Of a DNA stretch of 64,000 bases, positions 3,032 through 61,349 are shown piece after piece. Origin of the DNA: Bifidobacterium breve (GTDB lineage Bacteria; Myxococcota_A; UBA796; SXON01). The stretch covers positions 2,513-66,512 of the forward strand of contig CALQBK020000002.1 in assembly GCA_943328795.2 (NCBI GenBank). Reading direction: 5' to 3'. A program made the position numbers and the translations under genes. A model generated the notes under the pieces. It did no database searches. It was not told the origin of the DNA and saw only the letters and a list, made by a program, of their open reading frames with translations. Each line of letters begins with the position of its first letter. The first letter of the stretch is position 1.

Positions 3032-3931
3032 ATGGCTACGCTTCGCGACATTCGTACACGCATCACGTCGGTGAAGAGCACAAAGCAAATCACCAACGCG
3101 ATGAAGATGGTCTCCGCCGCCAAGCTCCGGCGCGCGACGGACGCTGCCGTGTCCGCGCGGCCGTGGCAGGAGACCCTGACCGCGACGCTTCAGCGCATCG
3201 CCGGCGGTGCGGCTGGCGGTGAGGTGCAGCACCCGCTCCTCGAGCCACGTGGCGCCGTCAAGAACGTGCTGCTCGTCGTCGTGACGACGGATCGCGGCCT
3301 GTGCGGCGGGTTCAACGGCACGCTGCTGCGGCAGACCGACGTGTGGTTGAAGACTCAGCAGGGCACGCTCGTGCAGGCGGGGCAAGATGGCTCCGCGGCG
3401 CGCCGGGTTCGGGTTCGCACCTTCGGCAAGAAGGCGCGCGAGTTCTTCAAGAGCCGGCCTGTCGTCGTGGACGAATCCACGATTGACGCGACGTCCGCGA
3501 AGTTCCAGGAGATCGTCCAGGCCCTCTCGGACGAGATGGTGCGCGGGTTCATCGCCGGCGAGTACGACGAGTGCGTCATCGCCTACAACGCGTTCAAGAA
3601 CACGCTCACGCAGACCCCCACGTTCACGCGGGTGCTCCCGCTGTCGATCGAGGCGGGCGCCACCACGGGCCCGAGCGTCGACTACGTGTACGAGCCGAAG
3701 GGCGCCGCGATCCTCGAGACGCTGCTCCCGCTCTACCTCCGCACGCTGCTTCTGCAGGCGTTCCTGGAGACCGGCGCCGGCGAGCACGCGGCCCGGATGA
3801 CCGCGATGGACAACGCCACGCGCAACGCGACCGACCTCATCAAGTCGCTCACCCTCGACTACAACCGCGGTCGCCAAGCGGCGATCACCAAAGAGCTCAT
3901 CGAGATCGTCTCCGGCGCTGAAGCGCTCTGA
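3032..3931 (+). CDS. atpG: F0F1 ATP synthase subunit gamma
   Basis: N-terminus MATLRDIRTRITSVKSTKQITNAMKMVSAAKLRRA and C-terminus ARMTAMDNATRNA...ITKELIEIVSGAEAL are gamma hallmarks. Confidence 0.96.
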   Translation: MATLRDIRTRITSVKSTKQITNAMKMVSAAKLRRATDAAVSARPWQETLTATLQRIAGGAAGGEVQHPLLEPRGAVKNVLLVVVTTDRGLCGGFNGTLLRQTDVWLKTQQGTLVQAGQDGSAARRVRVRTFGKKAREFFKSRPVVVDESTIDATSAKFQEIVQALSDEMVRGFIAGEYDECVIAYNAFKNTLTQTPTFTRVLPLSIEAGATTGPSVDYVYEPKGAAILETLLPLYLRTLLLQAFLETGAGEHAARMTAMDNATRNATDLIKSLTLDYNRGRQAAITKELIEIVSGAEAL

Positions 3932-50214: not shown

Positions 50215-51534
50215 ATGTTGACCCTACTCGCCCTCTCTGCTTTCGCGGCCGACCCTGAGCCCGCGGCCGCCGCTGTCCCCGCCCCCCAAGCCGTCGCGCC
50301 CGAGAGCGCGGAGGTCGACGCGCCTGCGCTCGCCGAGGAGGGCGACGGGAACGGCGCCGTCCCCGAGGCTGGCGGCGGCCGAGGCCGTGGCAACCACGGC
50401 GGGCGGCAGGGCCACGGCGGGCCCCCGGAAGAGGCGAAGTTCCGGCTCGGGGGCGTCTTCCAGACGAACTTCGTCGCCGAGCACCTGGAGCGGAACGGGG
50501 ACCCCGCGTACGCGGCGAACCCCCCGCGCCCGACGTTCACGGTCGCCCACTTTCGGCCCAACGCCGAGCTCGACGCTACGCCTTGGCTCGACGTGCGCGC
50601 TGGCGTCGAATTCGCCGCGATCCCCGACAGCCCGCCCGTGGACCCAGAGATGCTGGGTGACGCGCTCGCCGTCTCCGGCACCGACGAGACCATCCTCGAC
50701 CCGTCGCTCGACGAGCTCTTCGTTCGCTTGCACGTCGGCCGCAACGTGCGCCAGAACGTCAAGATGGGCGTCATGCACACCTCCTTCGGCCTGCGCGACG
50801 ACTACGACCGCTACGACCACTTCTTCCTCGGCGGGCAGCTCGCGTACATGGAGCCCGAGCGGCGGTTCGGCGTCTCTCCCGGCATCGACATCGGCGTTGG
50901 GTACCGGCTGGCGTGGAAGGACCTCGGCGCGCTCGACCTGCAGCTGATCAACGGATCGGGCGTGAGCAAGCTGGACTCCACCGCGGCGAAGGACGTCGTG
51001 GCGCGGCTCTCGGTCACCCCCTTGCGCGTGTTCGACCTGCGCGGTTCGATCATGCACGCGGGGGACGCGACCGACGGCCACACGCACGGCGCCGTGTCGC
51101 TCGAGGTCAACACCGAGCGCTTCGCGCCCGCGTTCAACCCCCGTGTGGTCGGCGAGGCGCTCCTGTCGCGCGTCGTCGAGGGCGGCGCGGTGACCGACCG
51201 GTTCGGCTGGTTCGTCGCCGCCGCGACCGATGTCCCGCTGCACACGTCCGTCACGGACCACCTGTCGGTGATCGGCAGCTACAGCTCCTTTGACCCCGAC
51301 TTCATCGTCGGTGGCCCCGACACCGAGGCGAGCTTCGACCAGCAGTGGTTCCTGGACGCCGGCGCCAACGTGTACTGGAACACCGAGGGCAAGAAGCAGG
51401 GCGCGCGGCACGAGGTGCGCGAAGGCGAAGGCGTGGTCGCGTTCACGGGGATCACCTACGAGATGCTCACGCCCCAGAACGCGGAGCTGCCGGTCTCGCA
51501 CAGCGTGACTGTGCAGTGTGGGATCTCGAAGTAG
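50215..51534 (+). CDS. Porin-like outer membrane beta-barrel protein
   Basis: Signal MLTLLALSAFAA. Acidic/Gly linker, then long alternating beta-strand pattern resembling phosphate-selective porin O/P-type proteins. Confidence 0.6.
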   Translation: MLTLLALSAFAADPEPAAAAVPAPQAVAPESAEVDAPALAEEGDGNGAVPEAGGGRGRGNHGGRQGHGGPPEEAKFRLGGVFQTNFVAEHLERNGDPAYAANPPRPTFTVAHFRPNAELDATPWLDVRAGVEFAAIPDSPPVDPEMLGDALAVSGTDETILDPSLDELFVRLHVGRNVRQNVKMGVMHTSFGLRDDYDRYDHFFLGGQLAYMEPERRFGVSPGIDIGVGYRLAWKDLGALDLQLINGSGVSKLDSTAAKDVVARLSVTPLRVFDLRGSIMHAGDATDGHTHGAVSLEVNTERFAPAFNPRVVGEALLSRVVEGGAVTDRFGWFVAAATDVPLHTSVTDHLSVIGSYSSFDPDFIVGGPDTEASFDQQWFLDAGANVYWNTEGKKQGARHEVREGEGVVAFTGITYEMLTPQNAELPVSHSVTVQCGISK

Positions 51535-51536
51535 GG

Positions 51537-52112
51537 GTGATCTTCCTCCTGGCGTGCCACGCCCCGCGCCCCGTGGTGCTGGAGCCTGACGGCGCCGCGC
51601 TGCTCGAGGCCGCCGAGGCCGAGGCCGCTCGCTTGGTGCCCGACGCCGCCCGGGGCGGTCCGCCGCTCGTGCAATTTGCGAGCCCGTTGCCTCCGTTTTC
51701 GGGGGTCAGCCGGTCCACGGCTCGCTACGTCGGGGAGGCCGCGTGCGCCCCTTGCCACGCGTCGGCCGCTGCGACCTGGGACGCCAGCGCACACGCCTCG
51801 GCCTGGGCCGCGCTGGAGGGGGCGTCCGCGGGCCAGCGCGCGGACTGCGTCGGCTGCCACGCGACCGGGTACCGGCAGCCCGGCGGGTTTCGCGACCCGG
51901 CGGCATCGTCCCTCGCCCTCGGGCAAGTGGGCTGCGAGGCGTGCCACGGGCCGGGATCCGACCACGTCGCGGCGTGCGCGGACGATAGGGACGCCGACGG
52001 ATACGGGGAACTACCAAGTTCAGACGCGGCTTGTGTGGGATGTCACAGCTGGGAGCGGTCGCCGGACTTTCGCTGGGCGGCGGCGTGGCCGATCATCGCA
52101 CACGGTCTATAA
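51537..52112 (+). CDS. Tetraheme c-type cytochrome (cytochrome c554-like); start uncertain
   Basis: Four CXXCH: CAPCH, CVGCH, CEACH, CVGCH. YVGEAACAPCHASAAATWDASAHASAW is the c554-like opening. GTG 51537 lies 2 nt after the porin stop but leaves only a 7-aa VIFLLAC leader. Confidence 0.82.
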   Translation: MIFLLACHAPRPVVLEPDGAALLEAAEAEAARLVPDAARGGPPLVQFASPLPPFSGVSRSTARYVGEAACAPCHASAAATWDASAHASAWAALEGASAGQRADCVGCHATGYRQPGGFRDPAASSLALGQVGCEACHGPGSDHVAACADDRDADGYGELPSSDAACVGCHSWERSPDFRWAAAWPIIAHGL

Positions 52113-52182: not shown

Positions 52183-53283
52183 ATGCACACCATCCTGGTC
52201 TCGCTCCTCGCCTTCCAAGCTCCCGCGTTGGCCGAGGACGGCGCGGGCCAAAGCTTCTTGTCCGCGATGAACCCGGGGATCTCCGCGAACGGGCTGTTCC
52301 TCGCGGGGGCTGAGCTCGACGACGGGGAGCTCGCTGCCCCGTCGTGGACCGGCGAGTCGGCGGACTTGCCCGGGAAAGGGGAGACCTTCGGCACGGGGCT
52401 CTCGGTGCAGGAGATGGAGGTGCAGCTGACCTCTGCGGTCGACCCGTACTTCAAGGCCAACATGGTGCTCGCTATCCCCGGGACCGAGGGGCTGGAGGTC
52501 GAGGAGGGGTTCGTCACGGTGACGGCCGTGCCCCGCTTGCTCGTGAACATCGGCAAGATCAAGGAGCCGTTCGGCCGGGAGAACGTGACCCACACGCACG
52601 CGTTGCTCACGATCGACAGGGCGCTGGTGTCGCAGCGGGTGTTCGGCGAGGAGGGGCTCAACGACGTCGGGGTGAACGCGCAGCTGCTGCTCCCGCTGCC
52701 GTGGTACTCGCAGCTCACGCTGGGGGTGGACGCCGGCCAGAACGAAGGCGTGCTCGGATCGGGTGACGCCGGGGGCTTCGGGTACCTCGCGCACTGGAAG
52801 AACCTGGTGGACCTGGGTGACAACTACAGCGTCGAAGTCGGCGCGTCGGGGCTCTCGGGGCTCGACGACATCGGCGGCCAGAGCGTCGTTGGCGGCGTCG
52901 ACGTGACGGTGAAGGGCCACGGCTCCGCGCGTCACCAGTGGAACCGGCTCGTGTGGCAGAACGAATTCATCTTCGCGGACAAGGGGCGGGCGCCTTCGGC
53001 GAGCAAGCCAGGCCAGCAGATCGGCGGCCTGTACTCGACGCTCGAATACTCCTTCACGAAGCGGTTTTGGCTCGGCGGGCGGTTCGACATGGTCGGCCTG
53101 CCGAAGCCGGTGGACGGCGGGCAGACGTTTGGCGCGACGGCAATCGCCGTGCTCGCCCCCACCGAGTTCTCGTGCTTCCGCCTCCAGGCCCAGCGCCAGT
53201 TTCTGCCGGGCGGTCACACGGCCGACTCGCTCACCGGCCAACTCAGCTTCGTCATCGGGGTCCACCCCGCGCACTCTTACTGA
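52183..53283 (+). CDS. Outer membrane beta-barrel protein linked to the metal ABC transporter
   Basis: Signal MHTILVSLLAFQAPALA. Beta-strand periodicity; C-terminal aromatic (...HPAHSY). Immediately upstream of the ZnuA-like gene. Confidence 0.6.
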   Translation: MHTILVSLLAFQAPALAEDGAGQSFLSAMNPGISANGLFLAGAELDDGELAAPSWTGESADLPGKGETFGTGLSVQEMEVQLTSAVDPYFKANMVLAIPGTEGLEVEEGFVTVTAVPRLLVNIGKIKEPFGRENVTHTHALLTIDRALVSQRVFGEEGLNDVGVNAQLLLPLPWYSQLTLGVDAGQNEGVLGSGDAGGFGYLAHWKNLVDLGDNYSVEVGASGLSGLDDIGGQSVVGGVDVTVKGHGSARHQWNRLVWQNEFIFADKGRAPSASKPGQQIGGLYSTLEYSFTKRFWLGGRFDMVGLPKPVDGGQTFGATAIAVLAPTEFSCFRLQAQRQFLPGGHTADSLTGQLSFVIGVHPAHSY

Positions 53284-53293
53284 TCGAGGTCCC

Positions 53294-54208
53294 ATGTTCT
53301 CTACTCCCCGTGCTTCTACCGCTCTTCCGCTGCTCCTCGGGGCGGTGTTCAGCTCCCCCGCGCTCGCAGCCGTCAACGTCGTCACCACCACGCAAGACCT
53401 GGCGTCGCTCACCGAGGCGGTGGGCGGGGCGAACGTGAAGGTCGCCTACATCGCCCGTGGGGATCTCGACCCCCACTTCGTCGACGCGAAGCCGTCCTAC
53501 ATGCTGAAGCTCTCCAGCGCGAACCTGGTGATCGCCGTTGGCATGGAGCTGGAGATCGGCTGGCTGCCATCGCTCCTCTCCGGCTCGGGCAACCCCCGCG
53601 TGCAGTCCGGCACGTCCGGCTACCTCGAGGCCTCCGCCGCGATCACCCCGATCGAGGTCCCGACGGGCTCGATTGACCGGTCCCGCGGCGACCTCCACCC
53701 CCAGGGGAACCCGCACTATTGGCTCGACCCTGAGAACGGGCGCAAGGTCGCGCGGCTCATCGAGCAGCGGCTGGAGCTCGTCGACCCCGGAAACGCCGCC
53801 AGCTACAAGGCCAACCTGGCGTCGTTCGAGAGCTCGCTGACCACGAAGGAGGCGAGCTGGAGCGCGTCGATGGCGAGCCTCAAGGGCTCGAACGTGATCG
53901 GCTACCACTCGACGTTCGACTACTTCGCCAAGGCCTACGGGATGAACGTCGTCGGGTTCGTGGAGCCACGGCCGGGCATCCCACCTACGCCGCAGCACAC
54001 GCTCGAGCTCATCCAGCTGGGCAAGACCTCCGCGGTCAAGCACATCTTGGTCGAGACCTTCCACAGCGGCGCGGACGCCGCGCCGATCGCCAGCGGCGCC
54101 GGCGCGAAGGTCGACACGCTCCCCAGCAGCGTAGGCGGCGCCACCGGCGTCGACTCGTACCTGGGCCTCTTCGACACCATCGTCCGCATCCTCACGACCG
54201 GAGCGTAG
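53294..54208 (+). CDS. Metal (Zn/Mn) ABC transporter substrate-binding protein, ZnuA/TroA family
   Basis: Signal peptide, VVTTTQDLASL, DLHPQGNPHYWLDPEN, YHSTFDYFAKAYGM. Confidence 0.9.
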   Translation: MFSTPRASTALPLLLGAVFSSPALAAVNVVTTTQDLASLTEAVGGANVKVAYIARGDLDPHFVDAKPSYMLKLSSANLVIAVGMELEIGWLPSLLSGSGNPRVQSGTSGYLEASAAITPIEVPTGSIDRSRGDLHPQGNPHYWLDPENGRKVARLIEQRLELVDPGNAASYKANLASFESSLTTKEASWSASMASLKGSNVIGYHSTFDYFAKAYGMNVVGFVEPRPGIPPTPQHTLELIQLGKTSAVKHILVETFHSGADAAPIASGAGAKVDTLPSSVGGATGVDSYLGLFDTIVRILTTGA

Positions 54209-54211
54209 GCC

Positions 54212-55066
54212 ATGTACGACATCGCCATGTTCTTCTTGCCCGCGTTCGTCGCGTGCCTGGTGCTGCTCGGCATCCACGTGTACCTTGGGATCCACGTCAT
54301 CACGCGCGGGGTCATCTTCGTGGACCTCGCGCTGGCCCAGATCGCGGCGCTGGGCGCGATGTGCGGGCTGTTCGTTGGCGCTGAGCCGGGGAGCACCGAG
54401 AGCTACTTCGTCTCGCTCGGGTTCACCTTCGTCGGCGCGATCCTGTTCACGCTCGCGCGTTCGCAGGCGAAGCGAGTGCCCGTGGAGGCCTTCATCGGCA
54501 TCGTCTACGCGGTCGCGAGCGCGGTCGCGATCATCGTGGCGAACAAGGGCCCGCACGGCGCCGACGAGATCCAGCAGATCATGGTCGGGAGCTTGCTCGT
54601 GGTCACCCCCGAGCGCATCGCCGTGACCGCCGGGGTGTACGTCGTGATCGCAGCCATCCACTACGCCTTCCGCGAGAAGTTCCTGCGGCTCTCGTTCGAT
54701 CCCGAGGGCGCCGAGCGGTCGGGGATGTCGATCGCGTGGTGGGATCTCGCGTTCTACGCCACCTTCGGCGTCGTGATCTCGCTGTCGGTGACCATCGGCG
54801 GCGTCCTCCTGGTGTTCACCTTCCTGGTCGTTCCCACGGTCATCGTCGCGCTGTTCACCCAGGGCGTCGGCCGGCGGCTGCTGGCCGGCTGGGGCGTCGG
54901 GCTGGTCGGTAGCGTGCTTGGCCTCGCCGCCTCGTACGAGTTCGATGCGCCGACGGGCGCGGCGGTGGTCGCGACGTTCGGCTCACTGCTCGCGGTGGCG
55001 CTCGTCGCGCGCGTGCTCATCCCGGGCGAGATCCAGACCGACTTGAGCTCGGGCAGCCACCACTGA
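54212..55066 (+). CDS. Metal ABC transporter permease, ZnuB/TroC family
   Basis: 8-9 TM helices with the ABC-3 family pattern (GVIFVDLALAQIAALG..., VFTFLVVPTVIVAL). Confidence 0.9.
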   Translation: MYDIAMFFLPAFVACLVLLGIHVYLGIHVITRGVIFVDLALAQIAALGAMCGLFVGAEPGSTESYFVSLGFTFVGAILFTLARSQAKRVPVEAFIGIVYAVASAVAIIVANKGPHGADEIQQIMVGSLLVVTPERIAVTAGVYVVIAAIHYAFREKFLRLSFDPEGAERSGMSIAWWDLAFYATFGVVISLSVTIGGVLLVFTFLVVPTVIVALFTQGVGRRLLAGWGVGLVGSVLGLAASYEFDAPTGAAVVATFGSLLAVALVARVLIPGEIQTDLSSGSHH

Positions 55067-55087: not shown

Positions 55088-56611
55088 CTACTTGGCCGCC
55101 GCCGCGTGAGAGATCCGCGGGAGGTAGGCCAAGAAGTCGAACCGGCCGTCGTCCTGGGTCGCGTCGTGGCAGCCCGTGCACGTCGCTGCGGTAGGCGTCG
55201 CCATCGGCGTAGCCGGGTTCACGACGTGCTCCTTCCCGGGCCCGTGGCAGCTCTCACAGCCGACGTTGGAGAGTGACCCGACCTCGCCCGGCGCGTGGGG
55301 GCCGAGCACCTCGCCGCTCCAGGGCACCGCGCCGGTCGCGTGGCAGGCGAAGCACGCCTGGTCGAGCTGGCGCTTCTTGCCGACGAGGGACGCCCAGGCG
55401 CGCGCGTGGGCCGTGCCTTGCCACTGGGTCGCCTGGCTGGCGTGGCACGCTGAGCAGGCCTTGCTCCCGACGTAGGGCCCGAGCACGGGCGCTGTCGGCG
55501 AGGAGGACACTAGCGCGTTGATCCGCTCCTTCGCGGCGTCCACCATCGCCTGGACGGCCGAGTCGTCCTTCACCGCGGTGTCGAGCGTGACCAGCGTGTT
55601 GTGTGCGGTGTGCGCGCGCTGGCTCACCGCGGTCGCCGCTTGCAGCTGTGCCTCGGCCCCCGCCGCCTCCTTCGCGTAGAACTCCGCCCGGCGCAGCGCG
55701 ACGTCCTTGTCCCGCTCGCCGTTCGCCTTCTCGGCGTCCGCCTTCGCTTGCTTGACCTTCTCGTTGTAGCGGTCGCGCTGCTCGGCGAGCCGCCCCAGCG
55801 TGCTGTCCTCCCGCCACGCAGTCGCCCCCGGGGTGAGCGTAAAGCTCAACACGCCGACGTCGCGCCCGCGGGTCCCTGGGCCAAGCTGGAGCCCGCCACC
55901 CGGGGCAGGGTCCGGGCTCGCCAGCGGCTGCAGGGTGCCGCCCACCACCAGGTCGATCCCCGGCACCGCCTTGAGCAGGCCGTCGCTCGGCTCGTCAGCC
56001 AGCGCGTCCAGGAGCACGATGACGTCGACGGGCGCCGCCCGGAGCCGCGCCACGCCGTCGCGGATGGCCGCCTGTGGATCCGTCGCGGTGCAGCCGGGGA
56101 ACAGCGCGCGGTCGTTCACCGCGCCGAGCACGCCAACGTGGAGGCCGGACTTTTCGATCACGAGGTCTTTCGCCGGGAAGCCGCCGCCACAGTCCAAGTT
56201 GCTCGCGACGTACGGGAGCCGGTGCTCCTCGGCGAGCGCGCGCACGAAGTCCACGCCCAGCGCCACGTCCCCCTCTGCGAGCAGCATGGCGTCGATGCCC
56301 GATGCGTCCACCGCGGCGGCCATCAGTCGTGCCTTCTCTTGCTGCTGGGGCTTCTCCTGCGACGTCAGCCGCGAGCTCTTCCAGTAGAGGTTGCCGCCGT
56401 CGACGACGAACACGGGGCTATCGCCCGCCGTGGTGCGGGCCTCGTGGATCGTCGTTGCGCGTCGGGGCAGACCGCCCGTGGGGTGCTTGGGTCACCCACA
56501 GGGTTCGATTTCACCGTCCCAGTGTGCGGTGTAGATCAACGTCGCCGTCGAGGCGGGAGCGGCGGGGTGGCACGCGGCGAGGCCGAGGAGGAGGAGGCCG
56601 GTGGGGATCAT
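55088..56611 (-). CDS. Lipoprotein with degenerate 5'-nucleotidase-like domain fused to a tetraheme c554-like domain. Contains one in-frame TGA (56492-56494): candidate selenocysteine, or a nonsense-disrupted gene.
   Basis: Same frame from ATG 56611 (ATGA overlap with the upstream stop) to TAG 55088. N-terminus MIPTGLLLLGLAAC (lipobox) ...LIYTAHWDGEIEPCG-TGA-PKHPTGGLPRRA...VFVVDGGNLYW. C-terminal CSACH, CFACH, CESCH, CTGCH. Confidence 0.7.
56463..56494 (-). other. SECIS-like stem-loop immediately 3' of the in-frame UGA
   Basis: UGA CCC AAG CAC CCC ACG GGC GGU CUG CCC CGA. C17GGGC21 pairs with G27CCC(C)G32. The apex GGUCU, within the heptamer GGUCUGC at nt 22-28, is the same heptamer and spacing as recalled for E. 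coli fdhF. Confidence 0.5.
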
Positions 56612-58161
56612 GGCTGACTCGGGGGCGACGGGGGCTGGGGGAGGGTCGGAGGCGCGCCGGGGCGGCGCTCCTCTTCGATGCGGTTGGTGCGCTCGTCCTT
56701 CTCGTCGTCGCCCGTGGCCTTGCGGCGATGCTCACGCACCAGGTCTTTCACGACCTCGAGCGCGCCGGAGTCGACCAGGTACACCTCGTCGTGGTCCAGC
56801 ACCCGCGCGTAGTACCGGGGGCGGTCCGGCTGGTCGTGCACGGTGCGCGGCGGACCCGGATCCCCGAGCAGCAGGGTCCGATCGACGCCGTCCAAGTCCT
56901 GCATCCGCACCCGCACGAGCGGGTGGTCGAAGCCGTACTTCGCGTCGTCAGCGGAGGCGGAGACGAACTCGTCGGCTTCTATGCCTGCTGTTCTCTGGGC
57001 GACGCGCTTTGGCGTGGACCCCGCGACCGGCACGCCGTCCTCCCACTGCCAGCTGTCCGCGGCCATCCGGACGGTCACGGTGCCGTTCAACGTGGCGTCT
57101 TCGCCCGTCGCCCCGTCGAGCGTCGCGACGATCTGCGAGACCCGGTTCGGGTCCATCCGGCCAAACCGCATGAGCCGGTAGGTCGAGGGCTCGCGCGCGT
57201 AGTCCTCGAGCAGCCCGTTTCGCGCGGTGTACACGCTCGGCTCCTCGGCGAGCCGCACGTAGGCGAGGTCGTAGTCGCCGTCCTTCTCGGGCGCGGGCCC
57301 GCCGACGAGCAGCGTCATCGGCTCGCGGCCGGAGAACGTGAGCTCGACGGTGAGCAGTGGAGCGTCAAGCCCGAACGTGTGCAGGTCCGCAGGCGTCGGG
57401 GTGTCCGTCACGAACTGCACGGCCTTGAGCGCAGACACGCGCCCCATCAGGCTGCGAACGCTGTCGTCGCTGGCCGCGAAGCGCTCGGGCTGCAGCAGGT
57501 CCCACGCGTGCTCCCCGGTGCGCTGGAAGCGCAAGTGCATCCCGCTTTGCGCCTTCACGTCGAGGGCATCGACGTCTTTCGAGTCGAAGCTCGCGAAGCG
57601 GCGCTCGCGGAACTCCGACAGCGAGAGTGAGTAGTAGTCCACCGCGGACTTCTTCACGGTGAAGATCACGTCCCCGGGTGTCGGGTGGATGTAGAAGCTG
57701 ACGCCGGAGGGGTTGGGGTCGCCCGCCTCGAACGTGTGCACCGACCCGTCGCGGAACGTGAGCGTCACGCGGATGGCGCTGTTCCCAAGGCCGTAGAGCG
57801 CGGCGTCGCCGGTGCTGTCGACCACGGTGGCCCGGCTGACCAGGTCGTGCAGCTGGTGCTTCACGCGGTTGACCATCGATCGGCTGGCCGGTAGGCTCTG
57901 CCCGTTGGCGCCCTCGGAGCCGTCGATCCACCACCCATCGGGCTTCTCGACGAGCGTGATCGCGCCGTCGGGCCGCTCGACGTTCACCTTGACCAGGTCG
58001 TTCTTCTCGAACGCGAACAGCGCGACGCCCTCGTCGTGCTTCTTGCCTTTTGCTGTGCCGGGCGTGACCGGGGCCGGCCGCGTCGCGAACCACGTGCCGG
58101 CTACCGCCGCGAAGACGACCAGGGCGACGAGCGCCCCCCGGAATTGGCGCAGGTACTGCAT
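56608..58161 (-). CDS. DUF4340-like protein (operon 2)
   Basis: N-terminal TM anchor (LVALVVFAAVAGTWF), repeated modules (YGLGNSAIRVTLTFRDGSVHTFEAGDPNP...; FGLDAPLLTVELTFSGREPMTLLVGG). One-base overlap TGATG with the upstream gene. Confidence 0.75.
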   Translation of the reverse strand: MQYLRQFRGALVALVVFAAVAGTWFATRPAPVTPGTAKGKKHDEGVALFAFEKNDLVKVNVERPDGAITLVEKPDGWWIDGSEGANGQSLPASRSMVNRVKHQLHDLVSRATVVDSTGDAALYGLGNSAIRVTLTFRDGSVHTFEAGDPNPSGVSFYIHPTPGDVIFTVKKSAVDYYSLSLSEFRERRFASFDSKDVDALDVKAQSGMHLRFQRTGEHAWDLLQPERFAASDDSVRSLMGRVSALKAVQFVTDTPTPADLHTFGLDAPLLTVELTFSGREPMTLLVGGPAPEKDGDYDLAYVRLAEEPSVYTARNGLLEDYAREPSTYRLMRFGRMDPNRVSQIVATLDGATGEDATLNGTVTVRMAADSWQWEDGVPVAGSTPKRVAQRTAGIEADEFVSASADDAKYGFDHPLVRVRMQDLDGVDRTLLLGDPGPPRTVHDQPDRPRYYARVLDHDEVYLVDSGALEVVKDLVREHRRKATGDDEKDERTNRIEEERRPGAPPTLPQPPSPPSQP

Positions 58162-59618
58162 CAACGGCCCCTCCGGTTCAGCCACACGCCGAGCGCGGCG
58201 AGCCCTACGAGCGACGGCGAGAGGCCGATGCTCAGCCACTGGATCCACGTCCGGTCTTCGTCCGTCAGCGCGAGGCGACGGACCTTGCTCGGGCGCCCGA
58301 CCACCGACATCCGGGCGTCGTCCCCGACCAGCCAGCGCACCGCGTTGATGGCGAAGCTCTGGTTGCCCGGGCCCTCGGCCATCACCGCGTTGCTCAACAG
58401 GTCGGCGTCGCCGAGCACGACCACGCGGCCGGCCTTCTTCTTCACGAGCGAGCTGTCGGACGAGACGTCCAGGGCGAGCGCCATCGCGACCGGGCCCGGG
58501 CCGTCGATGTCGGCCTGGTGGATGGCCTGCCCGTTCTCGGAGGCGCCGCCGCGCTCAATCCAGCCGTTGCGCCCTGTCTCCAAGAGCGTCGAGCTCCGGA
58601 CGCCGGGGATCGCCGGCACGCTGGCTTGGACCGGGGCGGCCCGGCTGACCACCGTGATGAGGTCGTCCGTCAGCAGGTCCTGGGTGATCGCGTGGCTCCG
58701 GTAGCGTGGGATCGGGCGATCCGGGTACGGGTAGAGCAGCTTCTCGTCGAGCACGTAGCCGCTCGGGACGACAACCCCGAAGCGGCCAAGCAGGTCGGGC
58801 ACTTCCCCGTCGGGCTCGACGGCGACCAGCAGCGCGCCGCCTGTCGAGAACCACGCCAGCAGCAGGTCCTCCTCGAGCGCGGGGATCGCGACGGTCGGCC
58901 GGACGACGAGCACCGCTGCGGCGTCGGGCGGCACGCGGGGCGCCTCGCCCGCCTCGTGGTCGCGGGCCAGGTCGAGCGCCTTGAGCTGGTAGTGCTCCTG
59001 GTCGAGCCCGGCGGCGAGGTCGGCCAGGCCCCCAGGGTCCTGGCTGTCGGGGCTCATCTCCCCGTGGCCGACCAGCGCGTACACCGTCTTTCGGGTGTCG
59101 GACGCCAGCTGGGAGAACCCTCGGCTGAGCGCGGCCTCCCCGAGGAACTCGATGTGCTTGTCTGCCCCCTTCCCGGCGCGGCGGAACAGCTCCCGGTCGG
59201 AGAGATCGACGCGTCGCTGCCCCCGTTGGATGACGACCGTGCTGTACTCGGTGACGCCAAGCGACTCGGCGGTGAGCCTGTCCTTGTCGAAGTCCACAAA
59301 ACGGGTGGTGACGCTGGCCGAGTTGTAGTCGAGCTCCTCGAGCAAGTCCGACAGCGCCTGGTCCTTGTACCGCGAGTCGTCTTTGCCCCGCTGCGCCGTG
59401 AACCCGGTGATCGTGACGGCTTCGCCGTCGGAGTCCAATAGCCGGAGCTTGTTCCGCGTGTCCGGCAACAGCGTGCTGCCCTGGTCCGACGAGAGGTCCA
59501 GGCGGACGCGGTACGTGTCGGCGAACAACCACCCCACGACCAGCGTGGCGACCACGAGGACGGTGACGAGCGTCGCGTTCGAGCCGAACGCGAGGCGGCG
59601 CTGCATCGCGCGGTTCAT
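58161..59618 (-). CDS. GldG-like ABC transporter auxiliary protein (operon 2); alternative ATG at 59624
   Basis: N- and C-terminal TM anchors, TITGFTAQ..., TVYALVGHGE..., AVLVVRPT..., VVVLGDADLLSN. ATG 59618 overlaps the permease stop (ATGA). Confidence 0.8.
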   Translation of the reverse strand: MNRAMQRRLAFGSNATLVTVLVVATLVVGWLFADTYRVRLDLSSDQGSTLLPDTRNKLRLLDSDGEAVTITGFTAQRGKDDSRYKDQALSDLLEELDYNSASVTTRFVDFDKDRLTAESLGVTEYSTVVIQRGQRRVDLSDRELFRRAGKGADKHIEFLGEAALSRGFSQLASDTRKTVYALVGHGEMSPDSQDPGGLADLAAGLDQEHYQLKALDLARDHEAGEAPRVPPDAAAVLVVRPTVAIPALEEDLLLAWFSTGGALLVAVEPDGEVPDLLGRFGVVVPSGYVLDEKLLYPYPDRPIPRYRSHAITQDLLTDDLITVVSRAAPVQASVPAIPGVRSSTLLETGRNGWIERGGASENGQAIHQADIDGPGPVAMALALDVSSDSSLVKKKAGRVVVLGDADLLSNAVMAEGPGNQSFAINAVRWLVGDDARMSVVGRPSKVRRLALTDEDRTWIQWLSIGLSPSLVGLAALGVWLNRRGR

Positions 59619-60334
59619 CGCCATCGACGGGACTCCAACGAACGGAACGTGAGGAACAGGAAGATGAAGGTGAACACCACGAAGTACAGGACGTCCGCCG
59701 AGTCGAGCACGCCTCGCTCGAACGACTCCAGGTGGCGGAGGACGCCGAACCGCTGCACCGCCGCGGCCCAGTCTGCCGGCAGCAGCGCCTCGGCTTGGTG
59801 GACGAGCCAGAACGGGAGCAGGATCATGATCCCGAGGAGCCCGGCGGCCACTTGGTCGTCCGTGAGCGACGAGGCGAACAGCCCGGCGGCGGAGAAGCCG
59901 CACGCGACCGCGACGAGGCCGAGGTAGCTGCACGCGATGACACCCCAGTCGGGGTCCCCGTAGTACCCGAGGATCACCGGGAACACGCCCGTGCCGGCGA
60001 GCATCAGGAGGCACAGCGTGAGCGAGGCCAGCCACTTTCCGACGACGATCGAGGACAGCGGCACCGGCGCGGTGAGCAAGAGCTCCAGCGTGCCTTGCCG
60101 GCGCTCCTCCGCGAAGTGACGCATCGTCAGCATCGGCAGCACGAAGAGCTGCGTGACCGCGAGGTTTGCCAGCAGCACTCGCAGCGAAGCTTCGCCGGTG
60201 AGGGAGATGCCGAGGTAGAAGAACAGCCCGGACAACACCAAGAAAGTGCCGAGGAACACGTAGGCCAGCGGGCTGACGGCGTACGACCGCAGCTCTTTCT
60301 TCCAGATGGTCCAAGCGCCGCGCAACCCCGTCAT
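59615..60334 (-). CDS. ABC-2 type transporter permease (operon 2)
   Basis: Six TM helices, FAEERRQGTLELLLTAP motif. ATGA overlap with the ATPase stop (60331-60334). Confidence 0.86.
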   Translation of the reverse strand: MTGLRGAWTIWKKELRSYAVSPLAYVFLGTFLVLSGLFFYLGISLTGEASLRVLLANLAVTQLFVLPMLTMRHFAEERRQGTLELLLTAPVPLSSIVVGKWLASLTLCLLMLAGTGVFPVILGYYGDPDWGVIACSYLGLVAVACGFSAAGLFASSLTDDQVAAGLLGIMILLPFWLVHQAEALLPADWAAAVQRFGVLRHLESFERGVLDSADVLYFVVFTFIFLFLTFRSLESRRWR

Positions 60335-61275
60335 CCGGCCTTCCCCTGGGTCACGCCCTCTTCTCCGACGATGTCGATGAACGCCTCTTCGAGCGTCGCC
60401 AGCCGGGCCTCGACGGCGCGGACGTGGCCCCCCGCGGCCACCACCCGGTCCACGAGCCCCTGGCGCACGTCGTCCCGGCTCATCACCCGGAACGCGGGCC
60501 AGCCCGAGTCCACGCTCGCGAGCGGCTCCACTTGGTCCACGCCCGGCGTGGTCGCGAGCTGCCGGGCGTCGATGCCCTGGGCCTCGATGAACGTCCAACT
60601 CCCGCGCTTCGCCCGGCGTTTCAGCTCGGCGAGGGTGCCTGACGCGAGCACCCGGCCGCGACCGATGACGATCGCGCGCGGGCACAGCGCCTCGACTTCC
60701 TGCAGCACGTGCGTGGACAAGATCACGGTGTGCGACGTCGCCAAGTCCTGGATCAGCGCGCGGATGCCGACCATCTGCGTCGGGTCGAGCCCGCTCGTCG
60801 GCTCGTCGAGGATCAGCACGGGCGGGTCGTGCAGCAGCGCCTGCGCCAGCCCCACGCGCTGCCGGTACCCCTTCGACAACGAGCCCAGGATGCGCGCTTC
60901 CCAGCCGCCGAGGCCCACGCGCTCCATCACCGCGCCCGTCTGCGAGCGGCACGCTCTCCCGGTCAGCCCGCGGAGCTCCCCGACGAACGCCAGGTACTCC
61001 CCGACGGACAGCTCCGGGTAGAGCGGCGGGGACTCCGGCAGGTACCCAACCCGGCGCTTGACCTCCATCGGGCTCTCGAACACGTCGAAGCCCGCGACCT
61101 TGACCTCCCCGGCGTTGGCCGGCAGAAAGCCGGTCAGGATGCGCATCGTGGTCGTCTTTCCGGCGCCGTTCGGCCCGAGGAAGCCCACGATCTCCCCCTT
61201 GCCGACCGAGAACGAGACGTCCGTGAGGGCAACGGTGGGTCCGAAGGACTTGGAGATACCGATCGCTTCGACCAT
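60331..61275 (-). CDS. ABC transporter ATP-binding protein (operon 2)
   Basis: Walker A GPNGAGKTT, signature LSKGYRQR, Walker B VLILDEP. ATG 61275 preceded by a purine-rich GGGAAGAAGG. Confidence 0.94.
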   Translation of the reverse strand: MVEAIGISKSFGPTVALTDVSFSVGKGEIVGFLGPNGAGKTTTMRILTGFLPANAGEVKVAGFDVFESPMEVKRRVGYLPESPPLYPELSVGEYLAFVGELRGLTGRACRSQTGAVMERVGLGGWEARILGSLSKGYRQRVGLAQALLHDPPVLILDEPTSGLDPTQMVGIRALIQDLATSHTVILSTHVLQEVEALCPRAIVIGRGRVLASGTLAELKRRAKRGSWTFIEAQGIDARQLATTPGVDQVEPLASVDSGWPAFRVMSRDDVRQGLVDRVVAAGGHVRAVEARLATLEEAFIDIVGEEGVTQGKAG

Positions 61276-61349
61276 GCGCCTTCTTCCCATCCTTCTCGCC
61301 GGAGCAGGCCGGGTGGGCGTCCTATCGTGCCCGGCGTTATCGAGCGACG

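Follow-up and report, generated by a model that had tools for sequence, protein, structure and literature searches.

A probable SECIS element behind the in-frame UGA of an UshA-like lipoprotein gene with four heme motifs

Bacterial selenocysteine insertion sequence (SECIS) elements have been described both for single genes and as a general class. For the fdhF gene of Escherichia coli, a minimal 17-nt element covering nt 15–31 has been defined (counted, here and below, from the U of the UGA codon), in which a bulged U17 is essential for recognition by the E. coli protein SelB and G23 and U24 are the key bases (PMC8659212). The consensus bacterial model (bSECISearch, Zhang and Gladyshev 2005, as summarised in PMC13188914) allows a loop of 3–9 nt with a G in one of its first two positions followed by G or U, an upper stem of 4–16 bp, a distance of 16–37 nt from the UGA and a folding energy of at most -7.5 kcal/mol. 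Among the protein families concerned, an UshA-like family was listed in 2008 in the GOS selenoproteome as “COG0737, UshA-like, CxU” with 76 selenocysteine (Sec) sequences (PMC2398784), and it appears as “UshA-like protein, NF041198, CxU” in a 2026 review (PMC13188914). Here we analyse a gene of this family, and the hairpin that follows its in-frame TGA, on the minus strand of a 64,000-nt stretch of contig CALQBK020000002.1 (assembly GCA_943328795.2), which we refer to as the window and whose positions are used throughout. We think, with a probability of roughly 0.88, that the hairpin is a functional bacterial SECIS serving the in-frame UGA of a predicted periplasmic UshA-like lipoprotein with the motif P-C-G-U. 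It is not new in kind, as both the selenoprotein family and the canonical SECIS type are known, and the known mechanism is unchanged.

The minus strand around the TGA reads GAA CCC TGT GGG TGA CCC AAG CAC CCC ACG GGC GGT CTG CCC CGA CGC, with U1 at 56,494 and G32 at 56,463; the transcription and numbering given in the first-pass annotation, made by a model from the letters alone, are exact. The core hairpin (56,465–56,477) comprises a 5' arm G18–C21 (56,477–56,474), the loop G22 G23 U24 C25 U26 (56,473–56,469) and a 3' arm G27–C30 (56,468–56,465), held by four G-C pairs with -6.9 kcal/mol (ViennaRNA). Its 5' arm and loop are also the codons GGC GGU CUG for the Gly-Gly-Leu of a conserved GGL motif (56,469–56,477). 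The first-pass annotation had drawn a longer stem, in which C17 pairs with G32 around a bulged C31. The inner four pairs and the loop GGUCU stand, and the outer pair was rejected: adding it is energetically disfavoured (-5.5 against -6.9 kcal/mol without it), and C31 is replaced by A in two close relatives where nothing compensates for the change, as would fit an unpaired base.

The fdhF sequence with which the first-pass annotation compared the element is correct: the 45-mer TGACACGGCCCATCGGTTGCAGGTCTGCACCAATCGGTCGGTAAT is 100% identical within fdhF of 5,413 complete E. coli genomes, where the TGA is codon 140 of a coding sequence annotated as selenocysteine-containing. The heptamer GGUCUGC occupies nt 22–28 in the window element, and G22–C28 are identical in fdhF at the identical distance from the UGA; in both genes the apical loop leaves G23 and U24 exposed, and GGU CUG is an in-frame Gly-Leu. 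The helix of the family consensus begins at nt 15–16, as in the minimal fdhF element. The two elements differ in how the loop is closed. In fdhF it is a 4-nt GGUC closed by A21-U26, whereas U26 of the window element cannot pair with C21, so that a GGUCU pentaloop closed by C21-G27 results, and the G27-C28 segment pairs in another register (C21-G27 in place of C20-G27). The helix of the window's clade has only four continuous pairs and lacks a long lower part, and over nt 1–45 the window sequence reaches -8.1 kcal/mol when the hairpin is enforced, compared with -14.9 kcal/mol for fdhF. A covariance model (CM) of the family, applied to fdhF, detected nothing beyond the 5-nt loop.

Compared with the consensus model, the window element fits in its loop (5 nt), its stem (4 bp, the lower limit), its G22 G23 U24 and the 18 nt (nt 4–21) between UGA and loop; in energy, the hairpin alone (-6.9 kcal/mol) stays short of the -7.5 kcal/mol limit, which is passed, by a small margin, only by the enforced fold of nt 1–45. 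The SECIS of Moorella thermoacetica fdhA in complex with SelB WH3-4 (PDB 1WSU) is reportedly G-C-rich, with a GGUCU-type loop closed by C-G, no bulged U and a stem of about 9 bp; if so, it is closer to the window element than fdhF is, differing in its longer stem. That a Moorella SelB–SECIS complex exists is documented (PMC4605307). The window element probably works like the fdhF SECIS, yet it is not strictly of the fdhF type and is typical of the broader bacterial consensus class.

The gene that contains the TGA is complete (55,088–56,611, minus strand). Read through the TGA, it has 507 codons including the one UGA, from an ATG at 56,611–56,609 to a stop at 55,090–55,088, and encodes an UshA-like (seleno)protein that ends in a four-heme cytochrome c554-like domain. 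The UGA (56,492–56,494) is codon 40 in the motif E-P-C-G-U-P-K, E-P-C-G-U being codons 36–40, and this provides the CxU motif of NF041198. Upstream of it lies a lipoprotein-type signal peptide with a lipobox (MIPTGLLLLGLAAC; 56,570–56,611), and at the other end the cytochrome domain carries four CxxCH motifs (55,091–55,489; Pfam Cytochrome_C554 and invariant Cys and His columns), with a degenerate 5'-nucleotidase-like region between E-P-C-G-U and these C-terminal heme motifs. Scored with U written as C, the read-through protein matches the NCBIfam model NF041198 (UshA_like_PCGU, “UshA-like (seleno)protein”) with 288.9 bits against a curated cut-off of 275, over residues 12–493 and thus across the TGA. 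The score, the P-C-G-U motif and the coexistence of Sec and Cys forms all agree with this family and nothing excludes membership; what the window's clade adds is the four-heme c554-like domain, the lipoprotein signal and a conserved operon with ABC-transporter and DUF4340 genes. A protein search returned full-length homologs of 500–590 aa that read EPCGC..PLGG, with Cys at the position of the TGA, and more than 100 homologs, which belong to several phyla, have a TGA at the identical codon.

One continuous translated product is favoured by the arrangement of the gene. TGA is the ordinary stop codon of many window genes, and a reassigned genetic code is therefore not the explanation. The residues that follow the TGA (PKHPTGGLPRRAT) are kept as protein with synonymous variation among relatives. 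Protein-level conservation extends over the 26 codons that separate the TGA from the first start codon after it, a segment which in Cys homologs is part of the same domain. Since the attachment of heme to CxxCH motifs presumably needs export, and since the sole export signal lies 5' of the UGA, an ORF (open reading frame) that starts after the TGA would not be able to function alone.

For a comparison of Sec and Cys forms, 106 distinct Sec-form sequences were collected from a scan of GTDB genomes, a pattern scan of metagenomes and the close relatives of the window gene. The metagenome pattern, GARCCNTGYGGNTGA-N15-GGNGG, placed no constraint on third codon positions or on either stem arm, and 83 of its matches were confirmed as family members by a hidden Markov model. 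The pattern of the GTDB scan was a generic heme motif; it returned only distant relatives (at most 38% identity), and these yielded the control set, 35 distinct Cys forms with the same spacing, which are under equal protein constraints but have no need of a SECIS.

The hairpin proved to be a property of the Sec forms. One of two hairpin types (the second is described below) was found at its fixed position in 101 of 106 Sec forms and in 9 of 35 Cys forms (Fisher p = 5e-16). For the uninterrupted stem that closes at nt 21, the median length is 6 bp in 97 Sec forms and 2 bp in the 35 Cys forms (Mann-Whitney p = 1e-6). Stems of 6–7 bp in homologs covary, as in CUGGGC/GUCCAG, UUGGGC/GUCCAA, CGGGGC/GUCCCG, CUUGGC/GCCAAG and UUGGGC/GCUCGA. 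In an alignment of 26 elements with a 5-nt loop, 84% of the cells are paired and 10 cells have changed on both sides; for 40 elements with a 6-nt loop the values are 90.7% and 28 cells. None of 500 shuffles matched either alignment in percent paired, in double-change cells or in covariation score, and sliding the 3' arm by at least one column reduced pairing to about 50% or below. Two further measures, the number of pairs with a double change (3 in each alignment) and that of further pair types, did not exceed the shuffles (65/500 and 15/500 for the 5-nt loop, 251/500 and 243/500 for the 6-nt loop).

Among 76 family elements of the window's type (type 1), G22, G23 and U26 are present in all 76, U24 in 64 and C25 in 61. 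An unguided RNAalifold run on nt 1–60 of 27 homologs gave G18–C21/G27–C30 as the sole consensus structure, and in relatives with longer stems (L001, L004 and L130) the consensus hairpin is itself the free minimum free energy (MFE) fold, with -12 to -17 kcal/mol. A CM trained on 19 homologs outside the window's clade, searched against both strands of the 64 kb, gave a single significant match (22.1 bits, E about 4e-4), 12 nt after the TGA, with the runner-up at 12.4 bits. It spans nt 12–36 (56,459–56,483, minus strand) and has a poorly paired lower part in which C17 and C31 are mismatched or bulged and C17-G32 or C15-G32 are possible pairs. All relatives from the window's clade scored 21.7–25.3 bits with the same model, and in 34 Cys loci (210 kb) the homologous site was matched only once, with 18 bits. 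This one Cys match (L048, 2239–2274, plus strand) is a GGLPRR form from a Planctomycetia metagenome-assembled genome (MAG) with a hairpin at the SECIS position, which may be a relic of a recent change from Sec to Cys or a product of chance.

The RNA requirement is visible in the codons as well. As nt 18–26 both encode Gly-Gly-Leu and form part of the RNA structure, it shows up as the choice of GGC GGU CUG together with compensatory flanking codons. In the window, which has 69.9% G+C, GGT makes up 2.4% of the Gly codons in neighbouring genes, and when PKHPTGGLPRRATTI was synonymously resampled with the codon usage of the window, GGTCTGC appeared at nt 22–28 in 0.9% of the trials, and 0.7% of them combined GGT with a stem of 4 bp or more. 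The second Gly codon (G22 G23 N24) is GGU in 57 of 97 Sec forms as against 2 of 35 Cys forms (Fisher p = 1.8e-8). That an identical apex at an identical distance from the UGA would hardly arise by chance, as the first-pass annotation had argued, is borne out by the resampling and by the comparison of homologs, but the argument has to be narrowed: G22, G23, C25 and U26 are fixed by the Gly-Leu dipeptide, which is conserved in Cys homologs too, so that the informative part of the coincidence is U24 and the spacing.

Within the window's own clade the stem is the weakest in the family, with four G-C pairs followed by C17 opposite C31. In relatives of 60–83% protein identity the stretch ACG GGC GGT CTG CCC is invariant (GCC as last codon in L210), while synonymous sites upstream of it vary in the same relatives (CCC/CCG, AAG/AAA/CGT, CCC/CCA/CCT). 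In L210 the change of CCC to GCC (Pro to Ala) shifts the register to a 5-bp stem with a 6-nt loop.

Several observations weigh against a SECIS at this site. The helix of the clade is short, being limited to the four pairs before the C17/C31 mismatch or bulge. The bulged U17 of fdhF is missing from the window element, where position 17 is a C, and from the whole family; the first-pass annotation had already failed to find it. Left to fold freely, nt 10–42 adopt another structure with -7.7 kcal/mol as against -6.9 for the hairpin, and nt 1–45 likewise reach -9.2 kcal/mol in a different fold. The hairpin is dominant in none of 7 single-sequence folding contexts, with a pair probability of 0.2–0.3 in short contexts and below 0.05 in those of at least 70 nt. 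The 61-nt region folds no better than its dinucleotide shuffles (z = +1.47), and as far as single-sequence folding goes this is the outcome that the first-pass annotation had named as speaking against its proposal; the support comes from the comparison of homologs. Nor did the Rfam search give a match, either at the gathering threshold or up to E = 10: the bacterial SECIS families in Rfam belong to the same functional class, but the window element is covered by none of their models. The 210 kb of control DNA contain one unrelated CM match of 20.8 bits (locus L035), which we rejected as a SECIS because the adjoining TGA is out of frame (GAT GAC); such a chance match means that the E-values of the model are rough and to be read loosely. 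Finally, no fdh, selA, selB or selD gene was found by Pfam in 39 of the ORFs of the 64-kb window that look protein-coding, and a scan for tRNA and tmRNA found no tRNA-Sec there, so the capacity of the organism to insert Sec is an assumption. We do not regard single-sequence folding as decisive, because folding is altered by the ribosome and by SelB and because the G+C content of the sequence is very high. The TGA lies in a curated Sec family, and the hairpin behind it is conserved, covarying and specific to TGA-containing homologs; on these grounds the SECIS reading proposed in the first-pass annotation holds.

Of several possible alternatives, one accepts Sec at the TGA but supposes that the functional fold of the window's clade differs from the consensus hairpin and that the likeness to GGUCU is incidental. 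The candidates would be the fold that is optimal for nt 10–42, in which G20–C25 pair with G32–C34 and C36–C38 (GCGGUC[UGCCCC]GAC-G-CGC), or a helix of longer range. Besides its lower energy, this fold has a loop with G in second position, 25 nt from the UGA, which is within the published SECIS model (PMC13188914), and the low predicted probability of the consensus hairpin in long contexts also speaks for it. We nevertheless consider it improbable, as RNAalifold gives only G18–C21/G27–C30 for the 27 homologs and the longer-stem relatives fold freely into the same hairpin. Within the clade, moreover, it is the codons of the consensus hairpin that are invariant, whereas those needed by the other fold vary (CGA/AGA/CGG, CGC/CGA), and the rare GGU is explained only if U24 is a recognised loop base.

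A more radical possibility is that the TGA is a real stop, the hairpin being a by-product of encoding Gly-Gly-Leu-Pro-Arg-Arg at 70% G+C; the locus would then be a pseudogene, or would encode a 39-aa peptide followed by a 441-aa cytochrome protein starting at the GTG at 56,413. All public gene callers do split the gene in this way, 29% of the synonymous resamplings produce a stem of 4 bp or more that closes at nt 21, and the single-sequence fold, as said, is no better than shuffles. We regard this reading as very unlikely. The TGA recurs at the same codon in the many homologs from several phyla mentioned above and aligns with Cys in the others; the 26 codons that separate it from the GTG are conserved as part of a domain shared with Cys homologs; and the one signal peptide available to this protein, which has four c-type heme sites, lies 5' of the TGA. 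A coding by-product also leaves the sharp difference between Sec and Cys forms in GGU usage and stem length without an explanation. Downstream hairpins can stimulate stop-codon read-through in other systems, and one could imagine that the UGA is read independently of a SECIS, by a near-cognate Trp or Cys tRNA or by a suppressor tRNA, with a hairpin that merely slows the ribosome. Nothing specific speaks for such read-through, and we give it hardly any credence: the family is a curated Sec/Cys family, and the composition of the loop (G22 and G23 invariant, U24 in most type-1 elements) and its fixed distance match the determinants of SelB and not a generic roadblock.

If the hairpin is a SECIS, as we favour, it would act in the manner known from other bacteria, in which such a hairpin sits at the ribosomal mRNA entrance with the conserved loop G about 20 nt past the UGA (PMC4605307). 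With a ribosome at the UGA, the entry channel would leave the mRNA free from about nt 16 on, and the exposed stretch could fold into the G18–C21/G27–C30 helix with its GGUCU cap. The C-terminal winged-helix domains of SelB, carrying GTP and Sec-tRNASec, would then bind G23 and U24 of the loop, and the ternary complex, tethered about 20 nt downstream of the A site, would outcompete release factor 2. That SelB binds the hairpin and that Sec is really inserted in this organism is what we infer from the E. coli and Moorella systems.

A side observation was a second hairpin design in the family. In about 30 Sec-form homologs the second Gly codon, on which the type-1 loop (GGUCU or GGUCUN at nt 22–27) is placed, is not GGU. 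These homologs have a hairpin 10 nt further downstream, at nt 25–41 after the TGA, with a stem of 6–10 bp and a GGC or GGA triloop at nt 32–34, on the first Arg codon (type 2; loci L008, L011, L022, L033, L082, L084, L089–L093, L102, L108, L111, L112, L115, L118, L122, L124, L140, L150, L154, L158, L160, L161, L165, L169, L172, L192 and L200). In the type-2 alignment 95.9% of the cells are paired and 25 cells have changed on both sides, values that none of 500 shuffles reached, and Cys homologs chosen by the same amino-acid criterion mostly have 0–2 bp at this site. A third variant, CCGGCGG-GUU-CCGCCGG, occurs in L085, L148 and L149. It is about an even bet, in our judgement, that the family has two SECIS designs in use, each excluding the other, on one and the same conserved peptide (GG-L-A/S/P-R-R-A), 10 nt or about one helical turn apart.

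A natural tandem of Sec and Cys paralogs was seen on one MAG contig (L072), with genes at 3082 and 4580 on the plus strand; the first has a TGA (EDCG-U) followed by a type-1 hairpin, and the second has Cys (EDCGC) and no such hairpin.

With regard to the protein, the fold was examined in a Cys homolog (P0039), whose AlphaFold model (pLDDT 86.6) has CD73, UshA and SoxB as its best matches in the PDB (E = 1e-13 to 1e-11); as far as a predicted structure can, it confirms the UshA-like fold of the family. Residues 24–75 of the window protein have YTAHWDG in place of the DxH motif and VDGGN in place of GD, if these are, as we take them to be, the corresponding UshA motifs, and the metal signatures of 5'-nucleotidases and calcineurin-like proteins are apparently replaced. 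The C-G-U site is situated in a loop (pLDDT about 64) between the first of these motifs and the conserved GGLxRRA, which begins a helix in the model of the Cys homolog. This site may serve in redox chemistry or chalcogen binding and not as a phosphoesterase centre.

In the genome, the selenoprotein gene is the last of a conserved operon on the minus strand (56,608–61,290 for the preceding genes), which encodes an ABC ATPase, an ABC-2 permease, an ABC_transp_aux (GldG-like) protein and a DUF4340 protein. The DUF4340 gene (56,608–58,248) directly precedes it, and its TGA stop overlaps the ATG of the selenoprotein gene as ATGA. The same order is found on the contigs of ten close relatives (L201–L215) and holds down to about 40% identity, and this synteny points to a functional connection of an uncharacterised ABC exporter with a putatively exported Sec- and heme-containing lipoprotein. 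On the opposite strand, a stand-alone four-heme c554-like ORF (51,534–52,112; CAPCH, CVGCH, CEACH, CVGCH) with a normal stop is a homolog of the selenoprotein's C-terminal domain. The relative L201 has a 191-aa Cytochrome_C554 gene in the syntenic position, and in the window the ORF lies in a convergent cluster with two unknown proteins, ZnuA (53,129–54,208) and an ABC-3 permease (54,212–55,066).

In public data the family is systematically mis-annotated, at least as far as metagenomes are concerned. The closest homologs (45–83% identity; P0001–P0029 and P0121) are all gene calls of about 420–460 aa that start after the TGA, most of them unnamed, and in 9 of the 10 relatives whose contigs were fetched a 39–41 aa N-terminal ORF is called separately. 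In practice our result is thus an annotation fix for a gene that is split in the source MAG as in all close relatives that turned up in public data. What is annotated at present is a truncated ORF of about 440 aa without a signal peptide and without the Sec redox motif; recognising the SECIS gives back a single lipoprotein, predicted to be exported, which combines a C-G-U site with four hemes.

For a family that has no Rfam model, the analysis adds a SECIS alignment of more than 100 sequences, with covariation and a control of Cys homologs. It also provides a clear case of an RNA signal that constrains codons within a conserved protein motif, as a GGU codon with 2.4% usage is fixed in genomes of 70% G+C. 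If our interpretation is correct, the element of this high-G+C clade, with its 4 bp, would come near the minimum for a natural SECIS. Should both hairpin designs be functional, the family would record the relocation of a SECIS within one gene, possibly in step with a lineage-specific geometry of SelB.

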